From an uncultured Candidatus Saccharibacteria bacterium (GTDB lineage: Bacteria > Patescibacteriota > Saccharimonadia > Saccharimonadales > CAYVSP01): 44,902 nucleotides of DNA. The stretch is from assembly GCA_964453655.1 (NCBI GenBank), contig CAYVSP010000003.1, positions 1 to 44,902 of the forward strand, in the 5' to 3' direction. The notes below the pieces were generated by a model. The model had not been told where the DNA came from. It worked only from the letters and a program-made list of their open reading frames with translations, and did no database searches. Of the stretch, positions 6,901 to 32,672 are shown one piece after another; position 1 is the stretch's first letter, and the number at the start of each line of letters is the position of its first letter. Made by a program: the position numbers and the translations under genes.

Positions 6901-8196
6901 TTATTTACCTTTATTTTGCAGTGCTTCAACCCCTGGTAGTTTTTTGCCGGCCATCAATTCCAGGCTGGCACCGCCGCCGGTTGAAACATGATTAAAGTAG
7001 CTTGTCATGTGGCGCTCAGCCAGGTAAGCCGCAGTGTCGCCACCACCCACTAAGGTAAACGGTTGATGGCCGTATTCGCCAATTAAAGCATCAATGACTA
7101 GTTCTGTGCCATGTGCAAATGGACCGACCGCCCCTTGCAGAGCAGGTACTTCGGTTACCCCCATTGCACCATTCCATACAACTGTTTCGCACAGCTGAGT
7201 TGCACCAGCAATAAAGGCACCACTAAACGGCCCAATATCTAATATCATTTCGTCAGCTTTAATCATCGCGCTTTCGCGCGGCGGCCGCTTTGGATAGTTT
7301 TCTACTTCTGCAATCACGTGCGCATCCCAATCTACAATGCGAGTTGTGGCATGTTCCTCAACACGTTTTGCCACTACACCGTCTTGCGGTAAGTAAAAAA
7401 TAAAGTGTTCTTTCTTAGCTTTAGTGCGGGCTTTTTCTAATATATCCTTGGCCAGCGGCAAATCAGTTTTATCAGCCATGCTCTTGCCAATTTTGACACC
7501 TTGAGCCAGCAAAAATGTATTAGACATAGCCCCACCGATTACTACGATGTCGGCAATTTCAATGAAACGTTTTATGATATCGATTTTATCGGCAATCTTG
7601 GCGCCGCCTACAATTGCCATTAAAGGGCGCTGGGGCTTTTCCATAACGTCAGTGATGGTGTCTACTTCTTGTTCGAGTAAGAGTCCAGCTACAGCTGGCA
7701 GTAGTTTCGCTACACCACTAATCGACGCATGGTTCCGATGGGCATTACCAAACGCATCTTGGACGAATACCTGGCAGCCATTGGCTAGTTCGGCGGCAAA
7801 GCCTGAATCATTAGCTTCTTCACCAGCGTGAAAACGGGTGTTCTCGAGCAACAGTATCTGACCAGGTTTCAGCTTTGAGACTGTTTGTTTTACGACCGGG
7901 CCGATGCAGTCTTTCTCAAACTGCACTTCTTTGCCAATGAGTTTAGAAAGTATTGGCGCAACTGGCCGTAAGCTAAACTTAGGCACAACCTTTCCATCAG
8001 GTCGACCTCGGTGGCTGATGAGTACAATCCGGCATTTTTTCTCAAGTAAATACTTTAAAGTTGGCAGCGAGGCCTTGATGCGATAGTCGTCAGTAACTTC
8101 GCCTTGGTCATTACCAGGCACATTATAGTCAACACTTACCAGAACGCATTTATCGTCAAGCTTGATATCTCTAATTGTTTTTTTGCGAAATCCCAC
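6901..8196 (-). CDS. pgk: Phosphoglycerate kinase
   Basis: 431 aa with the SHRGRP, ENTRFH and GGGDTAA motifs and the C-terminal STGGGASLE motif. Confidence 0.92.
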   Translation of the reverse strand: MGFRKKTIRDIKLDDKCVLVSVDYNVPGNDQGEVTDDYRIKASLPTLKYLLEKKCRIVLISHRGRPDGKVVPKFSLRPVAPILSKLIGKEVQFEKDCIGPVVKQTVSKLKPGQILLLENTRFHAGEEANDSGFAAELANGCQVFVQDAFGNAHRNHASISGVAKLLPAVAGLLLEQEVDTITDVMEKPQRPLMAIVGGAKIADKIDIIKRFIEIADIVVIGGAMSNTFLLAQGVKIGKSMADKTDLPLAKDILEKARTKAKKEHFIFYLPQDGVVAKRVEEHATTRIVDWDAHVIAEVENYPKRPPRESAMIKADEMILDIGPFSGAFIAGATQLCETVVWNGAMGVTEVPALQGAVGPFAHGTELVIDALIGEYGHQPFTLVGGGDTAAYLAERHMTSYFNHVSTGGGASLELMAGKKLPGVEALQNKGK

Positions 8197-10014: not shown

Positions 10015-10578
10015 CTAAAGATACTTGCGAGTCAGGTTTTCTATGTTTTCAACAGCGGTTATTATGTTTTCATTGAAACTATCATCAGTTGGTTTGGCCC
10101 AAAGTACTTTTCTTGCATCCATATCAAAGTCCTCAGCAGTAAAACCTGACCCAGGGCGCTTAACGTCAATATATTGCTCATAAGTTACTTGTAGCTCACG
10201 GATTAGTTTCATTAACTTATCAACCTCTTGCTTAATGTCTTTGCTTAGATGTACCTCGGCTTTTAAGGACAATAACGACAGCTGGACAACAGGCTCGGTA
10301 ACCTCTTTCCATCTTCGCTCCATTGCTTCAACATAACCAAAGAACTCATTCATTTCCTTACTGGCCTTATCGTTCTTTACTGGGGTGTATTGAACGAAGG
10401 ATGAACGAACTACCCCAACGCCTTCACGCACTCTATAAACTTCTAACAATAACTCACTGGCAACTTTGTATTTATCGGTTCCTTTGATTTGGCGCTTCCA
10501 AGTGTCTAGACCAATCCATGCGATTATTACCCCTGCTATAGGGGTTAATTTGATGATAAAGTCTATTGCGTCGTTCAT
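10015..10578 (-). CDS. Hypothetical protein with N-terminal TM helix; third gene of the M-R operon
   Basis: 187-aa ORF that starts 21 nt after the stop of the restriction endonuclease gene, on the same strand. I recognise no family. Confidence 0.5.
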   Translation of the reverse strand: MNDAIDFIIKLTPIAGVIIAWIGLDTWKRQIKGTDKYKVASELLLEVYRVREGVGVVRSSFVQYTPVKNDKASKEMNEFFGYVEAMERRWKEVTEPVVQLSLLSLKAEVHLSKDIKQEVDKLMKLIRELQVTYEQYIDVKRPGSGFTAEDFDMDARKVLWAKPTDDSFNENIITAVENIENLTRKYL

Positions 10579-10599
10579 GGCTACATCAGGCTCACAGAC

Positions 10600-11385
10600 T
10601 TAAAACAATACTTCTTTTTCTCTGTAGAGTTGCGGCCAACTATTTTGCCTAATTCTGAACTTGGTGCCGTGATTATGTCCAGTACGTGCGTCAAAATCAA
10701 CTAGTACCGTGCTGTTTTCTAAGCATTGTAAAAATCCTTCAAAATCAAACCCTGTTAATTTCATTGCCCGTTCATATTTATAAAACTCTTTGCCGTTCTC
10801 TCTTTTTACTGCTGCCTGCACAAAAAAGCAGTTTGTCAGCTTGGCACCAACTTTGTGTTCCAAATCTTCAAAGCCCCAGTATGGTTGCGGATTTAACTCA
10901 CCTAAGCCGACTTTTGCCTCAACACCAGCCAGCCAGTCCTTATGTCGGTCCGATACGGCGTTTTTATCAAATGAAATCAGTACTTTCTTTTCCTTGCGGT
11001 CAATCTGTACCATGAAGCCTCTGTCGCTTCTACTGAGGCCGTTGATTGTCTGTCTAAAACTCATTTCAGTCTCGGAGTACTTCTTACCAGCTTCTTTGTG
11101 GGCCCAACCGTATTTCGGCAATAATATAGCAGGCACAAACTTAAGGGCAGTCGGTGACGGCTCCGTGTGAAATAGTGTAGTTAATGAGGATGTATTTAGC
11201 CGCTGTGTCTTCAACTCCCACTCAGCTGCATTAGGTATGGGTAAGTTGTTTTCTTCAATACCTAGCAAGTCTTCAAGAGTGTTACCAATACCACCATGGT
11301 TGCCATGACGCCCATTTTCTACCCAACCCATGGCAGCAATCTCGTGCAGTCTCTTTATTAACTCGTCTTTGGTATAGATTTTCAT
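10600..11385 (-). CDS. Type II restriction endonuclease, MvaI/BcnI-like
   Basis: 261 aa. The N-terminal block GWVENGRHGNHGGIGNTLEDLLGIEENNLPIPNAAEWELKTQR matches my memory of the MvaI/BcnI family signature. There is a 4-nt ATGA overlap with the upstream methyltransferase. Confidence 0.65.
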   Translation of the reverse strand: MKIYTKDELIKRLHEIAAMGWVENGRHGNHGGIGNTLEDLLGIEENNLPIPNAAEWELKTQRLNTSSLTTLFHTEPSPTALKFVPAILLPKYGWAHKEAGKKYSETEMSFRQTINGLSRSDRGFMVQIDRKEKKVLISFDKNAVSDRHKDWLAGVEAKVGLGELNPQPYWGFEDLEHKVGAKLTNCFFVQAAVKRENGKEFYKYERAMKLTGFDFEGFLQCLENSTVLVDFDARTGHNHGTKFRIRQNSWPQLYREKEVLF

Positions 11386-12140
11386 GCGATTAGACTTTCT
11401 TGTTTTTGGTGGTTTTTTATACGCTCATCTGCTAATTCGCAGTACTTCTTAGATAGCTCTATACCGATGTACTCTCTGTCTAGGTTCAGTGCAGCTATAG
11501 CAGTGGTACCTGAACCCATGAATGGGTCTAGGATGATTTTACCGTTCGTAGAGCCAACAATTCTTTCAATTAGTTTGACTGGGAAAGGTGCGGGGTGTGT
11601 GTTTTTTAGTTCCTGCCCGAACTCCCAAATGTCGCCAAGACTACTTGCTTTAGGGGCTAGCTTAAACTTAGGCTTAGCAATTAAATAAATGACCTCGTAT
11701 GTCGGCAGGAAGTAGCCAGGGTTGAAATTAATCCCGCCTTTTCTACGCCAAATTATTATTTGTCTAACTGGAAAGCCCTCAACAATATCATGTCTGTCCT
11801 GTAACAAGCCACCCTGTACACGCCACTTGTGATTGTAGAAAACGGCCCCGTCTTCTTTGGTAACACGCAACATTTCCTTTAAGCATTCTCGTTGCCACGC
11901 TACGTAATCATCATGCGGCATATTATCGTGGTGTTCTTCGTAGCCGTTCATTAGCGCAGCCCTTGACCATTTACCACCACGACCGTCTTTCATGCCGTTA
12001 CCAGTTGAGTTCTTGAGGTTATAAGGTGGTGACGTGATGACTAGGTCTACACTGGCATCAGGCATTTGCTTCATGACAGCTACGGCATCGCCACAGACGT
12101 TTTTATTAATAAAATCAGCTGGAAACTTTAACTTTTTCAT
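11382..12140 (-). CDS. DNA methyltransferase, beta-class (N4-cytosine or N6-adenine; SPPY motif favours m4C)
   Basis: 252 aa. Motif IV (DLVITSPPYNL) lies near the N terminus and motif I (LDPFMGSGTT) near the C terminus, which is the beta-permuted order. Confidence 0.85.
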   Translation of the reverse strand: MKKLKFPADFINKNVCGDAVAVMKQMPDASVDLVITSPPYNLKNSTGNGMKDGRGGKWSRAALMNGYEEHHDNMPHDDYVAWQRECLKEMLRVTKEDGAVFYNHKWRVQGGLLQDRHDIVEGFPVRQIIIWRRKGGINFNPGYFLPTYEVIYLIAKPKFKLAPKASSLGDIWEFGQELKNTHPAPFPVKLIERIVGSTNGKIILDPFMGSGTTAIAALNLDREYIGIELSKKYCELADERIKNHQKQESLIA

Positions 12141-12356
12141 TCTTTACCATTGTAACCTTATTAACCCTTTAATCAGTATCATAAGCATGCCCTGTAATGT
12201 CATCAGGGCTGAATACCCAAGCTGCTGCTTTTGATTATAGACTTTTTTACGGTGGTTTTACAGGGAAATAATAGCCAATACGCCCCCATATATAACCTTT
12301 ATCTGAGTCTCTTGCTCAACTGATTAATATATGTGGGTACAAATATGCTTGCATGC

Positions 12357-12420
12357 ACCTAGCAAAACCTAGCAAAACCTAACATTTGGCCGACCTGAGA
12401 AAACCTAAGAAAACCTAAGA
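12357..12420. repeat. Two pairs of tandem 10-bp repeats sharing AAAACCTA (candidate operator or iterons)
   Basis: ACCTAGCAAA occurs twice (12357-12376) followed by ACCTAACA. GAAAACCTAA occurs twice (12399-12418). The spacing is one helical turn. The site lies between the divergent methyltransferase and HTH/recombinase genes. Confidence 0.6.
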
Positions 12421-12500
12421 TTGTGCTACTATGAAAGTAACTCGGGTAAGGGACGAGTAACACAAACTATTCAAGAGCCAACACCAGTCTTGAGGTTTTA

Positions 12501-12677
12501 ATGTTACTAAACCCGCCCACAACTCTTCCAATATCAATAAAGGAGGCTCGCAAGCTATTAGGAGTCTCTGCTGCTGGTTTGTCAGATGACCAAATAGCAG
12601 AACTTGTCATATGCCTTACAGAGGTAGCTGATAATTTCTTGCAAGATTTAGGTTCCACTAACTATAATGGTGTCTAG
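12501..12677 (+). CDS. Small (58 aa) HTH-like protein upstream of the recombinase (possible regulator or directionality factor)
   Basis: My own translation gives MLLNPPTTLPISIKEARKLLGVSAAGLSDDQIAELVICLTEVADNFLQDLGSTNYNGV. The ISIKEARKLLGVS segment looks like an HTH. It falls below the 60-aa cutoff of the ORF track. Its stop lies 1 nt before the ATG at 12679. Confidence 0.45.
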   Translation: MLLNPPTTLPISIKEARKLLGVSAAGLSDDQIAELVICLTEVADNFLQDLGSTNYNGV

Positions 12678-14313
12678 TATGCTACCCGAACGTCTACAAA
12701 GGCAAAAGCAACAAACAATGGCCTTACGAAGCAACAAGGCTGTAGCGTACATACGTGTGTCAACAAAAGACCAGGTGGACAACGAAAGCATTGACACACA
12801 ACGTCAACGTATCACTCAGTACGCCGACCAGAACGGCCTTGAAATTGTTAAGTGGTTCATAGAAGAAGGTCGTTCGGGAAAAACAGTCGGAAAGAGACCA
12901 GCAGTCAAGGACATGCTTTTCTACCTTGCTCGTAATAAGGGCAAGATGGGGTACGCCATATTTTACAAAATGCAACGCTCGTCAAGAGACGTACAAAGCT
13001 GGGCAAGTGACCTGAAGTCTGTATTAAACGGCCTAGGCGTTGCTGTTCGTTCTGCGACTGAACATATTGACGAAAGTCCAACGGGTCGTTTTATGGAAGT
13101 TATGTTGGTCGCAAACGGTCAGTTAGACAATGACATCAAGTCTGGTGTTACAAGCGACAACATGGCTTCAGTCGCAAAACAGGGCTGGTGGCAAGGCGGT
13201 CCAATACCTGGCTATGACGTCGTTAGGGTCAAAATTGACTCTCAAAAAACACACTCAATGCTACGCAGCAACAAGCACGCTCCTGCACTAAAGACGCTTT
13301 ACGAGCGCTACTCAACTGGACAGTACAGTAAGGCTGACATAAAGCGGATGGCTAATGAACTCGGCGTGCGTAATGCCCATGGCGGTTACCTGAATGATAC
13401 AAGCGTTGACCGTATGCTTTCGCAACCTGCTTATATGGGCTACATATGCAATAAGCATTCAGGATTTGAACTATACGAGGGCAAACACATAGCAGACTCA
13501 ATAGTTACCCCAGAATTGTTTAACAAGACACAACGTGTACTAGCACTTCAGTCTAAAAGCACTAACAAACTGGGTAAGAAAAAGCTAATCATCAACAGTA
13601 TGTACCCCCTGAAGCGTTTTATACGTTGTGACAACTGTGGTGGGGCATACAGGGCTTCCGCTCCACTTTCTGGCGGCGGTAAAAGTCACTCTGCAAGATA
13701 CCATTGTCCTCGCCCTCAGTGTAAAGGGATTGTGCGTTCACGTAAGGCTGATGATGTACACAATGGGTTCGTAGAGCTACTAGATGACATAACTCCGTCA
13801 GAGGGTGTACTGAGGCTCTATAAGGAAATATTAAATCGTCAGGCCCTAACCCAACTTGGCAACCTGAATAAGCGTATTGAGCAACAGCGTAAATCGCTTA
13901 GTAACCTGGATGCCGAACGTCTTACTGCCCTACGTAGTGCAAACAATGGCCAACTGACCACTGAAGAAAAGGATGAACTGATTAGTAGCATTGCAGCCAA
14001 TAAAGCTGAGGTGATTGAAAATATAGCCAAACTTGAAGAGCAACAGCAGGTCAAGCAGTCAGCCGTGGAGTATGCGTTGAACTTCATGGGTGATGTCAAA
14101 AAATTATGGGTTGATGCAGACCCCGACCTAAAACAAAGGTTCCAAAAAATGATATTCCCAGATGGGGTGTCACTTAACACAAACAATATGACTTTTGGAA
14201 CCGAAGCTATAAGCCCACTTTACAGATACGTGCCAAATAAAAAAGACCTTTCCGCAAAGGAAAAGTCTCTTTTGGTGACCTCAAGGAGAATCGAACTCCT
14301 ATTGCCAGGATGA
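12667..14313 (+). CDS. Large serine recombinase (resolvase/invertase catalytic domain, recombinase domain, zinc ribbon, coiled coil)
   Basis: 548 aa. The catalytic-Ser motif is AVAYIRVSTKDQ and the Cys cluster is CDNCGG..YHCPRPQC. Alternative starts lie at 12679 and 12718. The last 14 codons (14272-14313) are antisense to tRNA-Glu. Confidence 0.88.
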   Translation: MVSSMLPERLQRQKQQTMALRSNKAVAYIRVSTKDQVDNESIDTQRQRITQYADQNGLEIVKWFIEEGRSGKTVGKRPAVKDMLFYLARNKGKMGYAIFYKMQRSSRDVQSWASDLKSVLNGLGVAVRSATEHIDESPTGRFMEVMLVANGQLDNDIKSGVTSDNMASVAKQGWWQGGPIPGYDVVRVKIDSQKTHSMLRSNKHAPALKTLYERYSTGQYSKADIKRMANELGVRNAHGGYLNDTSVDRMLSQPAYMGYICNKHSGFELYEGKHIADSIVTPELFNKTQRVLALQSKSTNKLGKKKLIINSMYPLKRFIRCDNCGGAYRASAPLSGGGKSHSARYHCPRPQCKGIVRSRKADDVHNGFVELLDDITPSEGVLRLYKEILNRQALTQLGNLNKRIEQQRKSLSNLDAERLTALRSANNGQLTTEEKDELISSIAANKAEVIENIAKLEEQQQVKQSAVEYALNFMGDVKKLWVDADPDLKQRFQKMIFPDGVSLNTNNMTFGTEAISPLYRYVPNKKDLSAKEKSLLVTSRRIELLLPG

Positions 14314-14347
14314 AAACCTGGTGTCCTAACCGTTAGACGATGAGGCC
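14273..14347 (-). tRNA. tRNA-Glu (anticodon UUC)
   Basis: The rc reads GGCCTCA TC GTCT AACGGTTA GGAC A CCAGG TTTTCAT CCTGG CAAT AGGAG TTCGATT CTCCT TGAGGTC A CCA. This is a cloverleaf with one G-U pair in the acceptor stem and an encoded CCA. Confidence 0.85.
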
Positions 14348-28566: not shown

Positions 28567-28640
28567 ACCGTGCTATTGTAACGCAATATTGCAAAAACAG
28601 GGGTAATTTGCTAAAGTCTCTCATGCATCAAGCAGCATAA

Positions 28641-28819
28641 GTCCTTGTGACACACGCACATTGATGTCGAACAAGGCGCGAGGGAAACGCGCAGCGAATC
28701 GTATACTAATACGGTGAGCGAGCATTGGAGCTCAGCAACAAAGTTCGGCGCAATGAACTTCAGCGGTGTCATGAGTAACGCTCATGAGCAGGCTGAAGTG
28801 GTGCGTGTGTCACAAGGGC
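28641..28819 (+). ncRNA. Unclassified, highly structured element of about 180 nt abutting the tRNA-Lys 5' end
   Basis: A 17-bp perfect closing stem pairs CCTTGTGACACACGCAC (28643-28659) with GTGCGTGTGTCACAAGG (28801-28817). It extends to 19 bp and overlaps the first 4 nt of the tRNA. At least five internal hairpins are present: GCGCG-AGGGAAA-CGCGC, ATCGTAT-ACTA-ATACGGT, AAGTTC..GAACTT, CTTCAGC..GCTGAAG and the enclosed CATGAG-TAACG-CTCATG. The strand is assumed to be that of the tRNA. Confidence 0.45.
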
Positions 28820-28892
28820 CAGTAGCTCAGCTGGTTAGAGCACCTGCCTCTTAAGCAGGGTGTCCGGGGTTCGAGTCCCCGCTGGCCCTCCA
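28816..28892 (+). tRNA. tRNA-Lys (anticodon CUU)
   Basis: GGGCCAG TA GCTC AGCTGGTTA GAGC A CCTGC CTCTTAA GCAGG GTGTC CGGGG TTCGAGT CCCCG CTGGCCC T CCA. This is a canonical cloverleaf with an encoded CCA. Confidence 0.92.
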
Positions 28893-28895
28893 AAC

Positions 28896-28923
28896 TTGTT
28901 ATTCTGCACATTTATTCTATAAT
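28896..28923 (+). promoter_or_regulatory. Promoter-like module for cassette 1 (TTGTTA, 16 nt spacer, TATAAT)
   Basis: The -35-like hexamer is at 28896-28901 and a perfect TATAAT is at 28918-28923. ATGs lie 3 and 9 nt downstream, with no Shine-Dalgarno sequence. This suggests a leaderless or near-leaderless mRNA. Confidence 0.45.
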
Positions 28924-28931
28924 TTATGATT

Positions 28932-29477
28932 ATGGCCTCTCTTGCTACAAACACAGCCCTTGAATTACCTCCAGCAGGTGCACTTTGGGTTAGTCCCGAT
29001 TTCATGGACTTAGAGCTTGTAGATCAAGCCAATCGAGTCACTGACCCACAAACCTATCTTCACATGAGAGGATTTGTGTGGATGCAAAAAAGTCCAGAAG
29101 AGGTTACAGCAATAATTGAAAATGGAGATACTCCAGAACCTCTATGTGAAATGGCACAAAAAGTAGCAGATGCACTTCCTTTTGTATGGAGTAGTCTAAG
29201 TTTTTACATACGTCATATTGGAACTAAAGAGCACACATCTAGCGTAAGTATTCACAGCGACAATGATAAAAGCATGCGTGTTTTAATTGAAGGTGGCAGT
29301 GCTAAATGGGTGTTTGACCAAGAAGAGTGGACACAACAATATCCAAATGGCTTATTACTAAGAAAAGGAACGGCGGCTGTCTTAAACAACTTGTGTGATC
29401 GATCGAGTCAACTACGCCACGGTGTAACAACAGAATTAGATACCAGAACAAGCTATTTGTTTAACTTCTATAAATAG
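28932..29477 (+). CDS. Cassette 1: hypothetical protein (about 181 aa)
   Basis: ORF from the track, with an alternative ATG at 28926. I recognise no family. Confidence 0.55.
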   Translation: MASLATNTALELPPAGALWVSPDFMDLELVDQANRVTDPQTYLHMRGFVWMQKSPEEVTAIIENGDTPEPLCEMAQKVADALPFVWSSLSFYIRHIGTKEHTSSVSIHSDNDKSMRVLIEGGSAKWVFDQEEWTQQYPNGLLLRKGTAAVLNNLCDRSSQLRHGVTTELDTRTSYLFNFYK

Positions 29478-29553
29478 CATCTCCAATTCTGGTAGCACCA
29501 ACCCTCACTATGGCCCTAATTGGCAATATTTAGTTTTGTGTTGCTGTGAATTG

Positions 29554-29604
29554 AAGTAGTAACTAGATCTACGATGGCCCTCCAATACGCTTATGCTTAA
29601 AAAC
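29554..29604 (+). repeat. Cassette-boundary repeat R1
   Basis: agtaactagatctacga TGGCCCTCCA atacgcttatgctt. The right arm matches R3 and R4; the left arm is weaker. Confidence 0.65.
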
Positions 29605-29627
29605 AGAGGTAAATTGCCTCTGTTTTT
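29599..29627 (+). terminator. Rho-independent terminator inside the R1 boundary
   Basis: Hairpin AAAAACAGAGG-TAAATTG-CCTCTGTTTTT. Confidence 0.65.
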
Positions 29628-29641
29628 GTTATGATTAATGG

Positions 29642-30256
29642 ATGGATAAGGTTGACTACAAAAAGAAGTTAAAAGACTTCTATCAGGCCGAGGTCAATAA
29701 GCCTGTAGTTGTGCAAGTCCCAAAGATGAACTTTATTATGATTGACGGCAAAGGTGACCCAAATACATCTCAAGAATATATTGACGCAATTCAAACACTT
29801 TACCCTGTTGCATACACCATAAAGTTCACTTCTAAAATAAAAAATGCTAAAGATTTTGGAGTTATGCCACTCGAAGGTTTATGGTGGACTGAAAATATGG
29901 CAGATCTCAGCCCAGAAGACAAGAGCAACTGGTTATGGACCGCTATGATTATGCAGCCAGATGTTGTTACTGAAGATTTATATAATCAAGCGGTTCAGCA
30001 AGTTAGAGAAAAGAAAAAACCCAAATCTTTAGAAAAACTACGTTTTACACCATACGAAGAAGGCCGCGCCGCACAAGTAATGTATGTCGGTCCGTATTCT
30101 GACGAAGGACCAACTATTCAAAATCTACACAATTTTATAAAAGAGCAAGGCGGCTCATTAGACGATACCAACAAGCATCATCACGAGATTTATTTAGGTG
30201 ACCCACGCCGTACTGACCCATCAAAGCTAAAAACTATAATTAGGCAGCCGTACTAA
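29642..30256 (+). CDS. Cassette 2: GyrI-like small-molecule-binding domain protein
   Basis: 204 aa. The pattern VPKMNFIMIDGKGDPNTSQEY..LYPVAYTIKF..MPLEGLWW..HHEIYLGDPRRTDPSKLKTIIRQPY is characteristic of the widespread GyrI-like/effector-binding family. It is preceded by TGtTATGAT (extended -10-like) 6 nt upstream, with no SD. Confidence 0.75.
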   Translation: MDKVDYKKKLKDFYQAEVNKPVVVQVPKMNFIMIDGKGDPNTSQEYIDAIQTLYPVAYTIKFTSKIKNAKDFGVMPLEGLWWTENMADLSPEDKSNWLWTAMIMQPDVVTEDLYNQAVQQVREKKKPKSLEKLRFTPYEEGRAAQVMYVGPYSDEGPTIQNLHNFIKEQGGSLDDTNKHHHEIYLGDPRRTDPSKLKTIIRQPY

Positions 30257-30277
30257 CTGAGTTCGATGTCCTGATCT

Positions 30278-30328
30278 TAGTTGTAATTGTGTTCACTGTG
30301 GCCCTCCATTCCCGATAATGCTTTATAT
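30278..30328 (+). repeat. Cassette-boundary repeat R2
   Basis: tagttgtaattgtgttcactg TGGCCCTCCA ttcccgataatgcttt. Confidence 0.65.
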
Positions 30329-30346
30329 GATTGTTATAATATAGTT

Positions 30347-30532
30347 ATGAAACAAAATCTTTGGATTGTAGGTTTAGGTCTCGTCATAATCGCAGCATTT
30401 AGGTACGCCTATGCGGGTTCCAGTGAAAAAGCAGCTGCCTGGGCATTAAGTACCGTCATTATGGTGACGGGTGGAATTGTGCTCGGTGCAGCATTTCTTA
30501 GCTATCACACTCTTTCAGGCAATAAAAACTAG
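30347..30532 (+). CDS. Cassette 3: small two-TM membrane protein (61 aa)
   Basis: Sequence MKQNLWIVGLGLVIIAAF..VIMVTGGIVLGAAFL... The start lies 6 nt after TGTTATAAT (30332-30340). The stop TAG is the first triplet of the R3 left arm. Confidence 0.5.
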   Translation: MKQNLWIVGLGLVIIAAFRYAYAGSSEKAAAWALSTVIMVTGGIVLGAAFLSYHTLSGNKN

Positions 30533-30580
30533 TTGCGATGAGCGTTACCGTGGCCCTCCAATTCAGTTATGCTTGCATTG
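30530..30580 (+). repeat. Cassette-boundary repeat R3 (closest to the consensus)
   Basis: tagttgcgatgagcgttaccg TGGCCCTCCA attcagttatgcttgcattg. The left arm is 18/21 identical to R6, 17/21 to R5 and 16/21 to R4. Confidence 0.75.
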
Positions 30581-30601
30581 TTTATTAAATCATCAATAAT
30601 T
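30573..30601 (+). promoter_or_regulatory. Promoter-like module for cassette 4 (TTGCAT, 17 nt spacer, ATAATT)
   Basis: TTGCAT at 30573-30578 and ATAATT at 30596-30601, with the ATG at 30607 and no SD. The same hexamers and spacing occur in R4. Confidence 0.5.
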
Positions 30602-30606
30602 AAGTT

Positions 30607-30906
30607 ATGACTTCACCAGGACAAGAAGGACTTTCTCAGGAATGCGTTGATAGAGCCCTAGCGCTTGAACAACTGTTGTTAGGCCAAGGTCTAATTACTG
30701 ATCAGCCGATTTTAGCAGCTCAGATGCAGGATGAACTGGAAGGCCATCTTAATAAACAAATTGTTGAACTGTTGGGAAGACCGCCAATTAGAAGGACTTT
30801 GTATGCGACTCTTGGAGATTTAGTGATATTAGGTAAGGCACAAGACACAAGCGATGGTATGGTATTCCAAATCTCTTATGTTAGTGAAGGTATCACTGAG
30901 GCATAG
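30607..30906 (+). CDS. Cassette 4: small acidic hypothetical protein (99 aa)
   Basis: ORF from the track. By my count it has about 14 acidic and 6 basic residues. I recognise no family. Confidence 0.5.
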   Translation: MTSPGQEGLSQECVDRALALEQLLLGQGLITDQPILAAQMQDELEGHLNKQIVELLGRPPIRRTLYATLGDLVILGKAQDTSDGMVFQISYVSEGITEA

Positions 30907-30919
30907 TTACTGACCCATT

Positions 30920-30970
30920 TAGTTGAGATAAGCATTACGATGGCCCTCCAATACCGCTTATTCTTGCATT
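30920..30970 (+). repeat. Cassette-boundary repeat R4
   Basis: tagttgagataagcattacga TGGCCCTCCA ataccgcttattcttgcatt. Confidence 0.75.
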
Positions 30971-30992
30971 AATAAATAAAGAGTCAATAATT
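30964..30992 (+). promoter_or_regulatory. Promoter-like module for cassette 5 (TTGCAT, 17 nt spacer, ATAATT)
   Basis: TTGCAT at 30964-30969 and ATAATT at 30987-30992, with the ATG at 31000 and no SD. Confidence 0.5.
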
Positions 30993-30999
30993 ACTAGCC

Positions 31000-31458
31000 A
31001 TGGTGAGTTTAGAATTTAGCGATGTACCATTAGACGAATCTTTAATCGGGCCATTATTTGCTAATAGGATTGGATTGGAGCCAGTTAGATGGGGTCAAAC
31101 ACCAGATTTCACATATGCCGACTCTGAAGTAGGGGATTATATTGAGCGAGAGATTGCAACACTTAAGATAGCAGCACTACCAATTTTACATCATGAACTA
31201 ACTGCACTTCTAGAGGAACTGCAAAGCGGTACTGAGCCCAAAACAGTTCTGCATGGATTTTTGGAATGGGGTGAATCTAGTGTTCCTAAAGTTGCTGGAT
31301 TTCTCGGTCAGCGTGCTGGTGATGTCCAATTAACAGTCCAGTCTTTAAGTAATCTAGGTGTATTAAAACAAGCCGCCAGGGTAGATGTTTTTGGTGATGC
31401 ACAGTTTATAGTAGATCCAAACGCAGAGATTTTTGCTCCCGCAATTTCGTTGCAATGA
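31000..31458 (+). CDS. Cassette 5: acidic hypothetical protein (152 aa)
   Basis: ORF from the track. Its stop TGA lies inside the R5 left arm. I recognise no family. Confidence 0.5.
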   Translation: MVSLEFSDVPLDESLIGPLFANRIGLEPVRWGQTPDFTYADSEVGDYIEREIATLKIAALPILHHELTALLEELQSGTEPKTVLHGFLEWGESSVPKVAGFLGQRAGDVQLTVQSLSNLGVLKQAARVDVFGDAQFIVDPNAEIFAPAISLQ

Positions 31459-31477
31459 GAGCTACCGTGGCCCTCCA
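31447..31477 (+). repeat. Cassette-boundary repeat R5 (left arm and core only)
   Basis: tcgttgcaatgagagctaccg TGGCCCTCCA. The right arm is not conserved. Confidence 0.7.
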
Positions 31478-31495
31478 CGCAAACCAATATATTGC

Positions 31496-31603
31496 CTAGA
31501 ATTGATAACCATTCAGCACATGTTGGTCCCAGTAAAAAAGAATTGCCAAAATTATAACGATAATAATGATTATTGTTGGCTTAGAAAGTTTAAGTTTACT
31601 CAT
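31496..31603 (-). CDS. Cassette 6: reverse-oriented 35-aa hydrophobic peptide
   Basis: My own translation gives MSKLKLSKPTIIIIIVIILAILFYWDQHVLNGYQF, with a single TM-like stretch. On the minus strand it is preceded by TGCTAATGT (weak extended -10-like), 6 nt upstream, with no SD. Confidence 0.3.
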   Translation of the reverse strand: MSKLKLSKPTIIIIIVIILAILFYWDQHVLNGYQF

Positions 31604-31645
31604 GGTTAAACATTAGCATATGTTATGGTTATGGCTAACGTATCC

Positions 31646-31676
31646 TAGCTGCGATGAGTGTTACTGTGGCCCTCCA
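31646..31676 (+). repeat. Cassette-boundary repeat R6 (distal end of the array)
   Basis: tagctgcgatgagtgttactg TGGCCCTCCA, followed by unrelated sequence and a bidirectional terminator. Confidence 0.75.
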
Positions 31677-31698
31677 TCTGTATTAAGATTCCAAATTA

Positions 31699-31726
31699 AA
31701 ACAGTCCGGATTAATCCGGACTGTTT
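31699..31726. terminator. Bidirectional terminator
   Basis: Hairpin AAACAGTCCGGAT-TA-ATCCGGACTGTTT, between the end of the array and the convergent surface-protein gene. Confidence 0.7.
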
Positions 31727-31743: not shown

Positions 31744-32397
31744 TTATTTACTTAGCTGGCGTCGGCGATTGTACATGTAGTGTGCAGTGCCTGCTGCAGC
31801 TGCAACTGACATTGCTGTTGCAACCACGCCCGAGGGACCAGTATTTGTTAATTTGGTAACTGTTTGAGTAGTAGACGCTGGTGTTGCTGGAGGGGTAGTT
31901 GGTGGGGTAGTAGGAGGAGTTGCCTCACACTTCAAACCATGTCCACCCAGGTAAGCGTTCAATAGACGGCCTGGTTCAAATGGTATTTTGCCATTAGGGC
32001 CGGTTGGATTCAGGCCTAGTGCCAGGTCAACTTGGTAGAAACACTTTGGCACATTGACGGTCATGGTGTGTGTACCAGGCTGAGCGTCTTTCAGTTTAGC
32101 AGCTGCAAACAACTTCTGATCTTCAAGAGGGTAAGGGTTGCCATCTTTATGGGGAACTGTGAAGGCGCTAAGCACGAAGTCTTTACGACAATTTGCATCA
32201 CCTTCTACATTGAAGCTAATGCTAATGGTATCGCCTTTACTATTGGTACCCTTGACGAATCCTTTGCCAAGGCCTTCTTCGGTAAACTTACAAGTTGGTG
32301 TATCGCCAGGGTTAGCGTAGACCTTTGCCGACGCAGTAACACCCGTAGCTACAGCTACACCTAAAACTAAACTTAAAATTATATTTCGTATTTTCAT
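31744..32397 (-). CDS. Secreted surface protein paralog with LTNTG sorting signal
   Basis: 217 aa with a signal peptide, the same 4-Cys domain as the ORFs at 14488 and 15740, and a (PTT)n linker. The C terminus is LTNTG, then a hydrophobic helix, then NRRRQLSK. Confidence 0.8.
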   Translation of the reverse strand: MKIRNIILSLVLGVAVATGVTASAKVYANPGDTPTCKFTEEGLGKGFVKGTNSKGDTISISFNVEGDANCRKDFVLSAFTVPHKDGNPYPLEDQKLFAAAKLKDAQPGTHTMTVNVPKCFYQVDLALGLNPTGPNGKIPFEPGRLLNAYLGGHGLKCEATPPTTPPTTPPATPASTTQTVTKLTNTGPSGVVATAMSVAAAAGTAHYMYNRRRQLSK

Positions 32398-32561: not shown

Positions 32562-32672
32562 TTAATTAGAGCTACGATTACGTCTTGCTTTACCGCTGGC
32601 TCGTCCACCCATACTTGAGATTTCACGCTGCCTGGTCTTATCCATAGCTGCAAATCCGCGCTTTTTAACCAT
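32562..32672 (-). CDS. Small KGG-motif stress-induced protein (36 aa)
   Basis: My own translation gives MVKKRGFAAMDKTRQREISSMGGRASGKARRNRSSN. It matches the RGFA.MD....REI.S.GG.AS pattern of the KGG/GsiB-like repeat. A strong SD (AAGGAGG) lies 4 nt upstream. Confidence 0.6.
   Translation of the reverse strand: MVKKRGFAAMDKTRQREISSMGGRASGKARRNRSSN

Follow-up and report, generated by a model that had tools for sequence, protein, structure and literature searches.

The subject of this analysis is a repeat-bounded gene array in an uncultured Candidatus Saccharibacteria bacterium (assembly GCA_964453655.1, contig CAYVSP010000003.1); the whole 44,902-nt stretch of DNA that was analysed is called the window. 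On the plus strand, a tRNA-Lys(CTT) gene at 28816-28892 (identified by ARAGORN and scored at 70.2 bits by the Rfam tRNA model) ends in a 10-nt sequence, TGGCCCTCCA, that we refer to as the core. The first copy of the core is the 3' terminus of the tRNA gene itself (28883-28892), and six further exact copies follow in the same orientation, starting at 29575, 30299, 30551, 30941, 31468 and 31667. The seven cores span 28883-31676, and one open reading frame (ORF) lies in each gap between consecutive exact copies. We consider it probable that this span represents a composite island, built by integration at the tRNA-Lys 3' end from recombinase-less mini-cassettes that are moved by large serine recombinase (LSR) elements using the same site.

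The repeats are far more frequent than chance would provide. When one mismatch is allowed, the core has 9 matches in the window compared with 1.73 expected, and none of 100 shuffled sequences reached 9. The six copies beyond the tRNA gene, designated R1 to R6, carry a left arm of 21 nt whose consensus, TAGTTGCGATGAGCGTTAC, is confined to the array within the window (3 matches with up to 3 mismatches, compared with 0.01 expected). By direct reading, the arm of R3 is identical to that of R6 at 18 of 21 positions and to that of R5 at 17 of 21. A right arm, AT.C.G.TTATGCTTGCATT, is common to R1, R3 and R4, and a weaker form of it follows the tRNA gene (repeat families D1, D5 and D7). Across species, the repeat unit has the consensus ..TAGTTGCRATAAGC.YYAC.R, followed by the core and then by AT.CCG.TTATGCTT, which we call the type-2 right arm. 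A cassette begins with a right arm, which in some cases is followed by a terminator; next come a promoter and a single small gene, and the 21-nt left arm and the 10-bp core form its end. In total, the array contains seven junctions of the arm-plus-core type, one of which is eroded.

Immediately beyond the tRNA gene, the sequence AACTTGTTATTCT... (28893-28925, plus strand, family D5) represents the weak version of the internal right arm, and it is overlapped by a promoter-like TTGTTA-16-TATAAT arrangement for cassette 1 that the promoter scan placed at 28896-28923. The ORF of cassette 1 (28926-29477, plus strand) encodes 183 aa, or alternatively 181 aa, and is an ORFan. The eroded junction lies just downstream (29489-29519, plus strand) and comprises a decayed arm, GGTAGCACCAACCCTCACTA, and a core at 29511 from which 2 nt are deleted (TGGCCCT--AA). 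This flank resembles an arm variant, GGTAGCCATAATCATCACAA, found in L014, one of the related loci that were fetched for comparison and that carry L-numbers here (proteins carry P-numbers). If the deletion is restored, the minus strand would by our reading encode WRAIVRVGAT. Minus-strand readings are given for the other junctions as well, as they bear on the origin of the left arm.

Junction R1 (29553-29584, plus strand) has its left arm at 29553-29574 and its core at 29575-29584, and the minus strand reads WRAIVDLVTT. It is followed at 29585-29628 by a type-2 right arm, ATACGCTTATGCTT, and an intrinsic terminator (29598-29628) in which the terminator scan recognized a 14-pair stem and a run of T residues. 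Cassette 2 (29642-30256, plus strand) encodes a GyrI-like small-molecule-binding protein of 204 aa (PF06445, E = 1.9e-16), which is the sole Pfam match among the cassette ORFs. Junction R2 (30277-30325, plus strand; core at 30299-30308, with a left and a right arm) reads WRATVNTITT on the minus strand, and precedes a cassette 3 ORF (30347-30532, plus strand) for a hydrophobic, two-helix membrane peptide of 61 aa whose TAG stop codon falls within the next left arm. That arm, TAGTTGCGATGAGCGTTACCG, belongs to R3 (30529-30577, plus strand; minus strand WRATVTLIAT), where the core at 30551-30560 is joined to the type-2 right arm ATTCAGTTATGCTTGCA containing TTGCAT, a -35-like box.

Cassette 4 (30607-30906, plus strand) encodes an acidic protein of 99 aa and is closed by R4 (30919-30967, plus strand; minus strand WRAIVMLIST), with a core at 30941-30950 and the type-2 right arm ATACCGCTTATTCTTGCATT. 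The 152-aa ORF of cassette 5 (31000-31458, plus strand) overlaps R5 (31446-31477, plus strand; core at 31468-31477; minus strand WRATVALIAT), whose right flank is not of a conserved type and was classed as 'P / other'. The sixth interval (31478-31644) holds a doubtful hydrophobic ORF of 35 aa on the minus strand (31496-31603), and may be an empty or decayed cassette. The last junction, R6 (31645-31676, plus strand; core at 31667-31676; minus strand WRATVTLIAA), is the attR-type end of the island. Beyond it, the array is closed on its chromosomal flank (B' side) by a perfect 14+14 inverted repeat (I16, 31699-31726), which forms a bidirectional terminator, and by a convergent gene at 31744-32397 on the minus strand for a surface protein of 217 aa with a C-terminal LTNTG-type anchor-like tail. 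A homologue of this gene with 75% identity stands just past the single-cassette array of L059, and the gene marks the edge of the variable region.

A preliminary description, prepared from the DNA letters and their translations, had reported the tRNA-anchored cores, the left-arm identity counts, the right arm shared by R1, R3 and R4, one ORF between consecutive exact cores, the GyrI-like second cassette and an array end formed by R6, a bidirectional terminator and a convergent gene. The core search, direct reading, the ORF list, the Pfam match and the inverted repeat with its neighbouring gene agree with all of this, the interval-6 ORF being the doubtful member. The 2-nt-deleted copy that had been noted at 29511 is likewise real, and is moreover preceded by a decayed left arm. 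That the repeats bound discrete, promoter-bearing and mostly single-gene units is also borne out, with the promoters in the form of promoter-like boxes. Upstream of several cassettes there are -35/-10-like boxes, and upstream of one a terminator, but the promoter scan as a whole yielded 7 sites compared with 9.1 expected from shuffled sequences, so there is no enrichment.

The functions of the cassette proteins are largely opaque to family searches. No match to PADLOC or NCBIfam was obtained for any cassette in the window. Cassette 1 found only itself among 5.8 billion proteins and matched nothing in Pfam, PADLOC or NCBIfam, and its AF2 model is poor (pLDDT 37) and unusable; cassettes 3 and 4 and the interval-6 ORF matched no family in the same three collections. 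The protein of cassette 5 has 16 relatives in a representative search and a better AF2 model (pLDDT 81), in which the C-terminal part is winged-helix-like, and the Foldseek matches to MarR and ArsR proteins are weak (E ~2.5e-3). A check of folds and profiles had been suggested as a means to reveal immunity, anti-defence or toxin-like proteins; it returned the GyrI-like match and the weak winged helix, but no defence family. A defence or immunity role is neither supported nor contradicted by the family and structure searches. The cassettes of other arrays encode small accessory functions, among them radical-SAM-like, hydrolase, Nudix and EamA proteins and toxin-antitoxin-like pairs (from Pfam and precomputed families, most names being our reading of translations), and we see no basis for naming a common function. 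As a separate observation, a relative of the cassette 5 protein with 43% identity is encoded in L068 (6404-8426), where the gene immediately upstream specifies a protein of 514 aa that weakly matches a Swt1-like HEPN. This region is rich in IS110/IS481 transposases, carries a gene for a TIR-domain protein and is not part of a tRNA-Lys array; the context hints at a toxin/immunity or defence setting for this protein family.

The origin of the left arm is revealed by LSR elements in related loci. In L052, an LSR gene (741-2426; 561 aa; domains Resolvase PF00239, Recombinase PF07508 and Zn_ribbon_recom PF13408) adjoins tRNA-Lys and finishes with 14 codons (..NWRARRDSNPRHSA) that are complementary to the 3' end of the tRNA. 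The first left arm and core are found ~8.5 kb beyond this gene, and further cassettes come after them; recombinase-less cassettes thus lie downstream of a resident LSR element. The simplest case is a clean 8.3-kb element in L056-L058, which reads tRNA-Lys, core and LSR gene at one end and left arm (CCTAGTTGCGATAGCAACCACTA), core and terminator at the other, with helix-turn-helix (HTH) regulators, an ImmA-like peptidase and a DnaD_N protein as cargo. The left arm is the right-hand end of this integrated element, and is therefore the P arm of its attP.

A matching excised form appears to be represented by L064, a contig of 8,060 bp whose first 25-30 nt occur again at 8031. Because of this 30-nt terminal overlap we regard L064 as a circle of ~8.03 kb, on assembly evidence. 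Its left arm, core and LSR 3' end form an attP that is crossed by the LSR ORF (P0018). The circle also encodes an HTH repressor, a BLIP-like protein, a DUF5659 protein, a DnaD/O-like replication initiator and five proteins without recognized function. PHROGs identified only the repressor, the replication initiator, the BLIP-like protein as a moron, and the integrase; virion or transfer genes were not recognized in the circle, and neither the repeat nor the LSR elements had matches in IMG/VR. An attP-type junction of the same kind (left arm, core, LSR) is present in L055. We conclude that a family of LSR elements of ~8 kb exists in Saccharibacteria in both integrated and circular form.

The two forms can be told apart by the C-terminus of the recombinase. 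The LSR family comprises 597 proteins at E<=1e-20, and C-termini were read in the best 120 of these. In almost every one of the 120, the C-terminus consists of W-R-A and then of residues specified by the complement of a tRNA-Lys T-arm; the strict motif WRA[RQ]RD occurs in 43, and most others are T-arm variants such as WRASGDSNPGHPA. Three of the 120, including P0018 of the circular contig, instead continue as WRA[IT]V..I[AS]T.., which is the complement of the left arm. In the circular form, the complementary strand of core and left arm thus supplies the LSR tail ...W-R-A-[I/T]-V-x-L-I-A-T, and in the integrated form the complementary strand of the tRNA 3' end supplies ...W-R-A-R-R-D-S-N-P-R-H-x-A. 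Since the LSR gene spans attP, its tail is rewritten on integration.

The same coding capacity is retained by arms that stand in arrays. When the minus strand is translated in the frame set by TGG AGG GCC, each of the 50 non-redundant left arms gives WRA[I/T]Vx[L/A/V]I[A/S/T]T without a stop codon. Their column entropy peaks at third codon positions, with 1.39 bits compared with 1.03 bits at first and 0.70 bits at second positions (permutation p = 0.018). It is therefore very likely that the left arm corresponds to the 3' terminus of the recombinase gene in its excised configuration, that is, the attP arm of an LSR. The conserved TAG on the plus strand, which at times provides the stop codon of a cassette, would by our reading be a by-product of Thr-Lys codons on the opposite strand. 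The earlier assertion that the repeats are more than tRNA scars is upheld in a specific sense, as the left arm is the P arm of an LSR. We also aligned the left arm with the tRNA as a degenerate T-arm; the in-register alignment gave no similarity, and this was kept as an idea and dropped as evidence.

Two other explanations of the repeat are affected by these results. The first is an RNA-level signal, in which the repeated tRNA 3' end would act as a tRNA-like processing or stabilizing tag at the 3' ends of cassette mRNAs. Each cassette transcript would indeed finish in ...TGGCCCTCCA, and tRNA-like elements with acceptor-type stems are located downstream of tRNA-Lys in relatives. However, the variation of the left arm tracks the codon positions of the opposite strand, and the repeat has no 5' acceptor partner (GGGCCA) upstream within it, no stable fold and no Rfam match. 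We regard an RNA tag as extremely unlikely.

The second is a true integron-like platform, in which a dedicated recombinase encoded elsewhere in the genome would act on folded repeat DNA, as IntI does on attC. The preliminary description chose an integron-like organization as its headline, and the cassettes are indeed single-gene, repeat-bounded and co-oriented; some copies, such as R4, even have an imperfect ATAAGC/GCTTAT dyad around the core. When folded as single-stranded DNA, however, the six junctions are no more stable than shuffled sequences (z from -1.14 to +1.01; minimum free energy from -1.1 to -5.1 kcal/mol). The repeats contain no GTTRRRY box, no IntI-like gene was found among the neighbours scanned, and the cassettes have promoter-like sequences of their own. 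Moreover, the left arm is fully explained by an LSR attP. We therefore do not retain the integron framing, and consider a platform of this type very unlikely. A Xer/dif-like site (pdif module) was also considered as an identity for the repeat and was rejected, with the ATAA...TTAT motifs ~26 bp apart rather than 6-8 bp.

With the left arm identified as an LSR attP arm, the junctions can be named. The tRNA-Lys 3' end is the attB-type (B) half-site and the anchor of the array, and the core is the shared centre of this attB and of the attP of the LSR element family. In an integrated element, as in L056, attL reads tRNA-core-LSR and attR reads left arm-core-terminator; attP reads left arm-core-LSR (L055, L064), and attB, present in several loci, reads tRNA-core-terminator. 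The combinations of left arm and core in the array are attR-type junctions left by recombination at the core. In real attP sites, we read a dyad of GCAA at -16..-13 and TTGC at +23..+26 that is centred between core positions 5 and 6. The position of this centre leads us to expect strand exchange at the central CC (TGGCC|CTCCA), and the crossover probably occurs at the dyad centre of the core.

Arrays of this type are distributed narrowly. A scan for the left arm plus core over 185,579 species, each represented by one genome, returned 38 loci, among which the multi-copy matches all derive from Saccharibacteria metagenome-assembled genomes and the remainder are single chance matches. Copy numbers reach 8 within 8 kb (L014), 5 starting at tRNA-Lys (L012), 5 (L029) and 4 each (L030 and L037), and a stricter pattern added 16 further loci from metagenomes. 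Wherever a locus reaches the array start, the anchor is a tRNA-Lys gene or a tRNA-like 3' fragment, and several blocks, such as that of L014, stop short of the anchor; ARAGORN placed tRNA-Lys(CTT) at this position in L012, L029, L035, L050 and L052. The proposed search of other genomes has thus found a repeat that is tied to tRNA-Lys in Saccharibacteria, not a generic intergenic element. The Rfam models recognized only three tRNAs and a transfer-messenger RNA (tmRNA) in the window and only tRNAs in the related loci scanned. We found no description of such arrays in the literature on tRNA-Lys, serine recombinases or genomic islands of Saccharibacteria and Patescibacteria, and the array type seems to be undescribed in Saccharibacteria.

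Two observations concern the anchor itself. The array of L067 is anchored at a tRNA-Lys(UUU) gene (448-537) with the 3' end GGGCCCTCCA, which means that a target need be neither the CTT isoacceptor nor the exact 10-mer. In L004, L029, L034, L035, L041 and L061, a tRNA-like element of ~75-110 nt follows just downstream of tRNA-Lys (in L029, on the minus strand, at 448-567 and 1105-1224 in array orientation). It starts with GGAGCCAGTAG.. and ends with ..GTCCCACCTGGCCCTCCA, and thereby supplies a second core; its acceptor-like stem folds with z = -3.2. This element was not called by ARAGORN and has no Rfam match; its possible identities are a small RNA and a decoy or second attB.

Several findings indicate that the units between cores are discrete modules. 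The clearest is a homologue of cassette 5 (P0242; 74% protein identity) that forms the first unit after tRNA-Lys(UUU) in L067. The DNA alignment between the two starts at the core, spans the right arm, the promoter-like TTGCAT...ATAATT boxes, the ORF and the left arm, and ends at the next, degenerate core, and the sequences outside both boundaries are unrelated. The next unit in L067 appears, from our reading of both translations, to be a hydrolase homologous to that of the first L012 cassette. Other instances of sharing are a RelE/ParE-like pair (named by reading of the sequence) that adjoins a left arm in L013, L041 and L045, and two consecutive cassettes common to L022 and L040; such examples are few. 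In L004 and L029, the 90-120 nt normally located just after the tRNA stand on either side of an inserted unit, which is the pattern expected if a circle carrying left arm, core and downstream flank inserts at the core. A census of junctions found every combination of left side (tRNA, tRNA-like fragment or P arm) and right side (LSR, two conserved arm types or plain terminator), as exchange at the core predicts. Cassette boundaries coincide with the core, at least for some units, and we think it highly probable that the units are discrete modules exchanged there.

The content of the locus also varies between relatives while its borders are maintained. The arrangement of FolD (minus strand) upstream of tRNA-Lys (plus strand) is conserved in L004, L012, L032, L037 and L059. 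In L059, the closest relative with usable sequence (FolD 84% identical to that of the window), the order FolD, tRNA-Lys ... LPXTG-like gene, KGG, DHFR and FolC is preserved, but a single unrelated cassette of 126 aa with a left arm and a mutated core replaces the six units of the window. The presence or absence of cassettes between relatives had been named as an expectation, and this orthologous locus exhibits it. None of the window cassettes has a homologue in 13 Saccharibacteria loci from the genome scan, and in a wider locus comparison only the flanking genes matched the window.

These data must be weighed against the possibility of a passive scar field, in which the junctions would be attR scars of separate, full-size LSR elements that were later deleted down to their last gene, with nothing mobile now. 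The left arm is, after all, the P arm of an LSR element, a C-terminal remnant of an LSR gene lies beside a tRNA fragment in L049, and decay is evident in the eroded junction at 29489-29519 and in the mutated cores of L059 and L067; most arrays, furthermore, have no resident LSR nearby. Against this stand the absence of any LSR remnant to the right of a core in the window, and a right arm at internal junctions that is conserved across species, which independent deletions would not yield. Cassette 5 has been kept as a whole block, from right arm to left arm, between different neighbours in another genome, with homology ending at the cores. Finally, the core-to-core spacing (48 intervals, median 692 bp) is <=1 kb in 31 of 48 cases, a tighter size range than elements of 8 kb would be expected to leave on decaying at random; the three intervals of >2.5 kb include both of those with a resident LSR element. 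On this evidence we judge a purely passive origin to be unlikely.

Alternatively, the ~50-nt repeats could serve as portable homology, with RecA-type swapping after DNA uptake as the mode of exchange and LSR elements responsible only for seeding the repeats. Saccharibacteria have been reported to be naturally transformable, repeats are alike between species, and the duplication in L004 and L029 extends ~90-120 nt beyond the core, which is enough for a homologous crossover. However, most pairs of repeats are short and imperfect, with 10 exact bases and arms that are 60-85% identical. The boundaries of shared cassettes fall at the core and not at variable points within the arms, and the occurrence of all left-right combinations at the core fits a fixed crossover point. 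We accordingly assign homology-driven exchange a small probability.

The reading we favour, a composite island of mini-cassettes served by LSR elements of the same site, corresponds to what had been offered earlier as the second choice, namely serial accretion of miniature cassettes mobilized in trans. We envisage that LSR elements integrate at one copy of the core. With several attR-type junctions of the same orientation downstream, excision could then proceed via a different junction, such that cassettes would be picked up or left behind, and accretion would be followed by mobilization of cassettes in cis. Alternatively or additionally, the LSR might recombine cassette circles in trans. By such events, cassettes would be added, lost, carried between genomes and reshuffled, and the tRNA would stay intact. 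This traffic would also keep exchanging P arms between arrays and LSR genes, which would explain why arms in recombinase-less arrays look like coding sequence. We infer that the LSR, rather than another process, is the mover, and likewise which pairs of sites it accepts. Whether members of the LSR family actively move mini-cassettes today is a closer call, with the balance of evidence tilting slightly towards current activity.

A more ambitious version of this model can be put forward tentatively. Here, the arrays would constitute an integron-like gene-capture platform that is run by an LSR in place of an integron integrase. LSRs delivered by ~8-kb episomes, exercising relaxed site choice, would insert, excise and reshuffle single-gene cassettes with their own promoters, using any of the cores beyond tRNA-Lys. 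The recombinase tail would be rewritten in each event, perhaps coupling activity or directionality to the integration state, and the platform would be a main route for the flux of accessory genes in these reduced genomes. We regard this version as possible, and somewhat short of an even chance.

A number of observations weigh against a composite island that is served by LSR elements. The cognate LSR is not in the window, where a tblastn search with the L052 LSR finds only the tRNA-Glu LSR (12667-14313; 23% identical), and most of the arrays examined have no LSR within ~8 kb. The preliminary statement that no recombinase is adjacent is accordingly correct for the array, which has no recombinase adjoining it and no integrase within 14 kb, but the window does hold the tRNA-Glu enzyme. 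As to the suggested check for a co-occurring recombinase gene, one was seen in L052, L055, L056-L058 and L064, and none within ~8 kb in most of the arrays examined. Canonical large serine integrases recombine attP with attB only, and the reaction between attL and attR requires a directionality factor (PMC3783163). Insertion beside an occupied tRNA, or excision between attR-type junctions, would by analogy require relaxed site choice or such a factor.

The remaining difficulties concern the arms and the comparisons available. The type-2 right arm follows 23 left-arm junctions and is never canonical after a bare tRNA; it may be a P'- or a B'-type half-site, a comparison with five real P' arms favouring neither. 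The likeness between the P arm and the tRNA T-loop is weak (identity of 0.30-0.36 at a shift of +4/+5 compared with 0.12-0.31 at other shifts). No circular cassette junction was seen, and both of the other assemblies of the array are identical to the window. These are independent short-read assemblies, L062 (28865-34598; SRR9179562) and L063 (28865-32104; SRR9179561), with an array that is 100% identical to ours, and they are the only other contigs with cassette 1. Both break inside the T-arm of tRNA-Lys, and L062 also ends inside tRNA-Arg; the breaks are likely due to shared tRNA k-mers rather than to heterogeneity. The FolD protein of the window has no exact sequence on record, and the collections contain no strain-level relatives, the closest FolD being 87% identical.

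The layout had been presented as one for which no described system is known. This does not hold, since the same logic is found in staphylococcal cassette chromosome (SCC/SCCmec) composite islands, where Ccr large serine recombinases excise and circularize neighbouring SCC cassettes, singly or combined, including tandem SCC-like cassettes that lack a recombinase (PMC11470126). These islands, with Ccr acting at the 3' end of rlmH/orfX, are the nearest match in mechanism. In both systems, an LSR inserts elements into the 3' end of a conserved housekeeping gene, which is preserved. Successive elements and recombinase-less cassettes form a tandem series in which direct repeats of the core delimit every member. 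The window accordingly exhibits an SCC- or CIME-type layout (CIME, cis-mobilizable element) of seven cores and six units without a recombinase among them. In contrast to SCC, the target here is tRNA-Lys, the cassettes measure 0.2-2 kb rather than 5-60 kb and mostly carry one gene with its own promoter-like sequence, and the recombinase gene straddles attP such that its C-terminal tail changes on integration. Furthermore, the host belongs to a reduced-genome Saccharibacteria lineage, and mobilization is deduced here from sequence.

CIMEs accrete with, and are mobilized by, integrative and conjugative elements (ICEs), as in ICESt1/ICESt3 of Streptococcus thermophilus and in the ICE/CIME combinations at the tRNA-Lys(CTT) 3' end of S. 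agalactiae. The resemblance is that att-flanked elements without recombination genes gather beside an autonomous element at the same site and can leave with it, and in one case even the target, the tRNA-Lys(CTT) 3' end, is the same. CIME systems, however, use tyrosine integrases and conjugative elements, and CIMEs measure several kb to tens of kb, whereas the units described here are single-gene and are associated with a serine recombinase and an 8-kb episome without recognized transfer genes.

Tycheposon islands of Prochlorococcus offer a further parallel, in that they lie beside tRNA genes, receive repeated integrations at one site and occur in a host with a streamlined genome. Newcomers push older elements inward in these islands, leaving partial tRNA repeats and degenerate remnants, and 910 of 937 tycheposons use tyrosine recombinases (10.1101/2020.12.28.424599). 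Tycheposon repeats are partial tRNAs, and their cargo is of kb scale rather than arranged in regular single-gene units with a two-armed repeat; in the arrays, the repeated part of the tRNA amounts to only 10 nt and is joined to 21 nt of non-tRNA sequence, and the associated enzyme is a serine recombinase.

With integrons, the arrays share a fixed anchor, small, co-oriented and mostly single-gene cassettes, repeats of ~50 nt with a conserved core and variable arms, and a content that is hypervariable between relatives. Unlike integrons, they have no IntI by the anchor and no attC hairpin or R/L boxes, the repeat derives from a serine-recombinase attP, and the cassettes have their own promoter-like sequences instead of a common Pc. 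The recombinases themselves resemble phage-type integrases (phiC31, Bxb1, A118/LI) in their Resolvase, Recombinase and zinc ribbon domains, in an attP of ~50 bp whose dyad has a short core at its centre, and in the hybrid sites that flank the integrated form. Those integrases, however, act strictly on attP and attB (PMC3783163) and form no cassette arrays, whereas the elements described here have no recognizable virion genes and are absent from IMG/VR. The features that set the arrays apart from all the systems compared are the single-gene scale of 0.2-2 kb, the regular, two-armed repeat of ~50 nt, the attP-spanning recombinase gene and the host lineage. What is new would thus be a miniature, SCC- or CIME-like cassette island at tRNA-Lys in Saccharibacteria that is based on a serine recombinase, the underlying logic being already known.

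Saccharibacteria and other bacteria of the Candidate Phyla Radiation have genomes of ~1 Mb, and the way in which they acquire accessory genes is poorly understood. The present locus is a conserved hotspot between housekeeping genes, where one-gene modules are fully replaced between relatives whose FolD proteins are 84% identical, and it is tied to the large and diverse LSR family of 597 homologues. If cassettes do actively move, the arrays would represent a second, mechanistically independent route to integron-style gene shuffling, run by serine recombinases. In practical terms, the LSR family provides ready sets of recombinase, attP and attB (the tRNA-Lys 3' end), which could be exploited as landing pads in Saccharibacteria, which are difficult to engineer, or as new integrases for genome engineering. 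The switch of the LSR C-terminus between a tRNA-encoded and an attP-encoded tail is, in addition, a candidate for state-dependent regulation.

The array is neighboured upstream by genes for FolD, a MurL-like protein and MurD, and downstream by those for the LPXTG-like protein, KGG, DHFR and FolC. Between the LPXTG-like gene and DHFR, a KGG-repeat stress-type peptide of 36 aa is encoded on the minus strand (32562-32672), and its position is conserved in L059 and L061. The leader of tRNA-Lys (28636-28817) contains a perfect 17-nt inverted repeat (28643-28659 / 28801-28817) that closes a hairpin of ~175 nt ending at the 5' end of the tRNA, and leader and tRNA together fold with z = -7.5. Relatives keep only the upstream promoter-like box TTGCAAAAACAGGGGTAATTTGCTAAAGT of this leader; that of L059 has a different sequence, yet again forms a stem ending at the tRNA 5' end. 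A tmRNA gene occupies positions 5-524 on the minus strand (Rfam, 48.9 bits).

A separate island extends over 10015-14347 at a tRNA-Glu(TTC) gene (14273-14347, minus strand). A restriction endonuclease of the MvaI/BcnI type is encoded in it at 10600-11385 and an N4/N6 DNA methylase at 11382-12140, and no repeat of the tRNA-Glu end was found at its far boundary. Its LSR (12667-14313, plus strand; 548 aa) is the distant enzyme mentioned above, 23% identical to the tRNA-Lys family, and its gene closes with ~14 codons (..LLVTSRRIELLLPG*) complementary to the 3' end of tRNA-Glu, which parallels the situation in the tRNA-Lys family. Upstream of this gene, at 12358-12425, short tandem direct repeats (ACCTAGCAAAACCTAGCAAAACCTAACA ... 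GAGAAAACCTAAGAAAACCTAAGA) look like iterons or binding sites.

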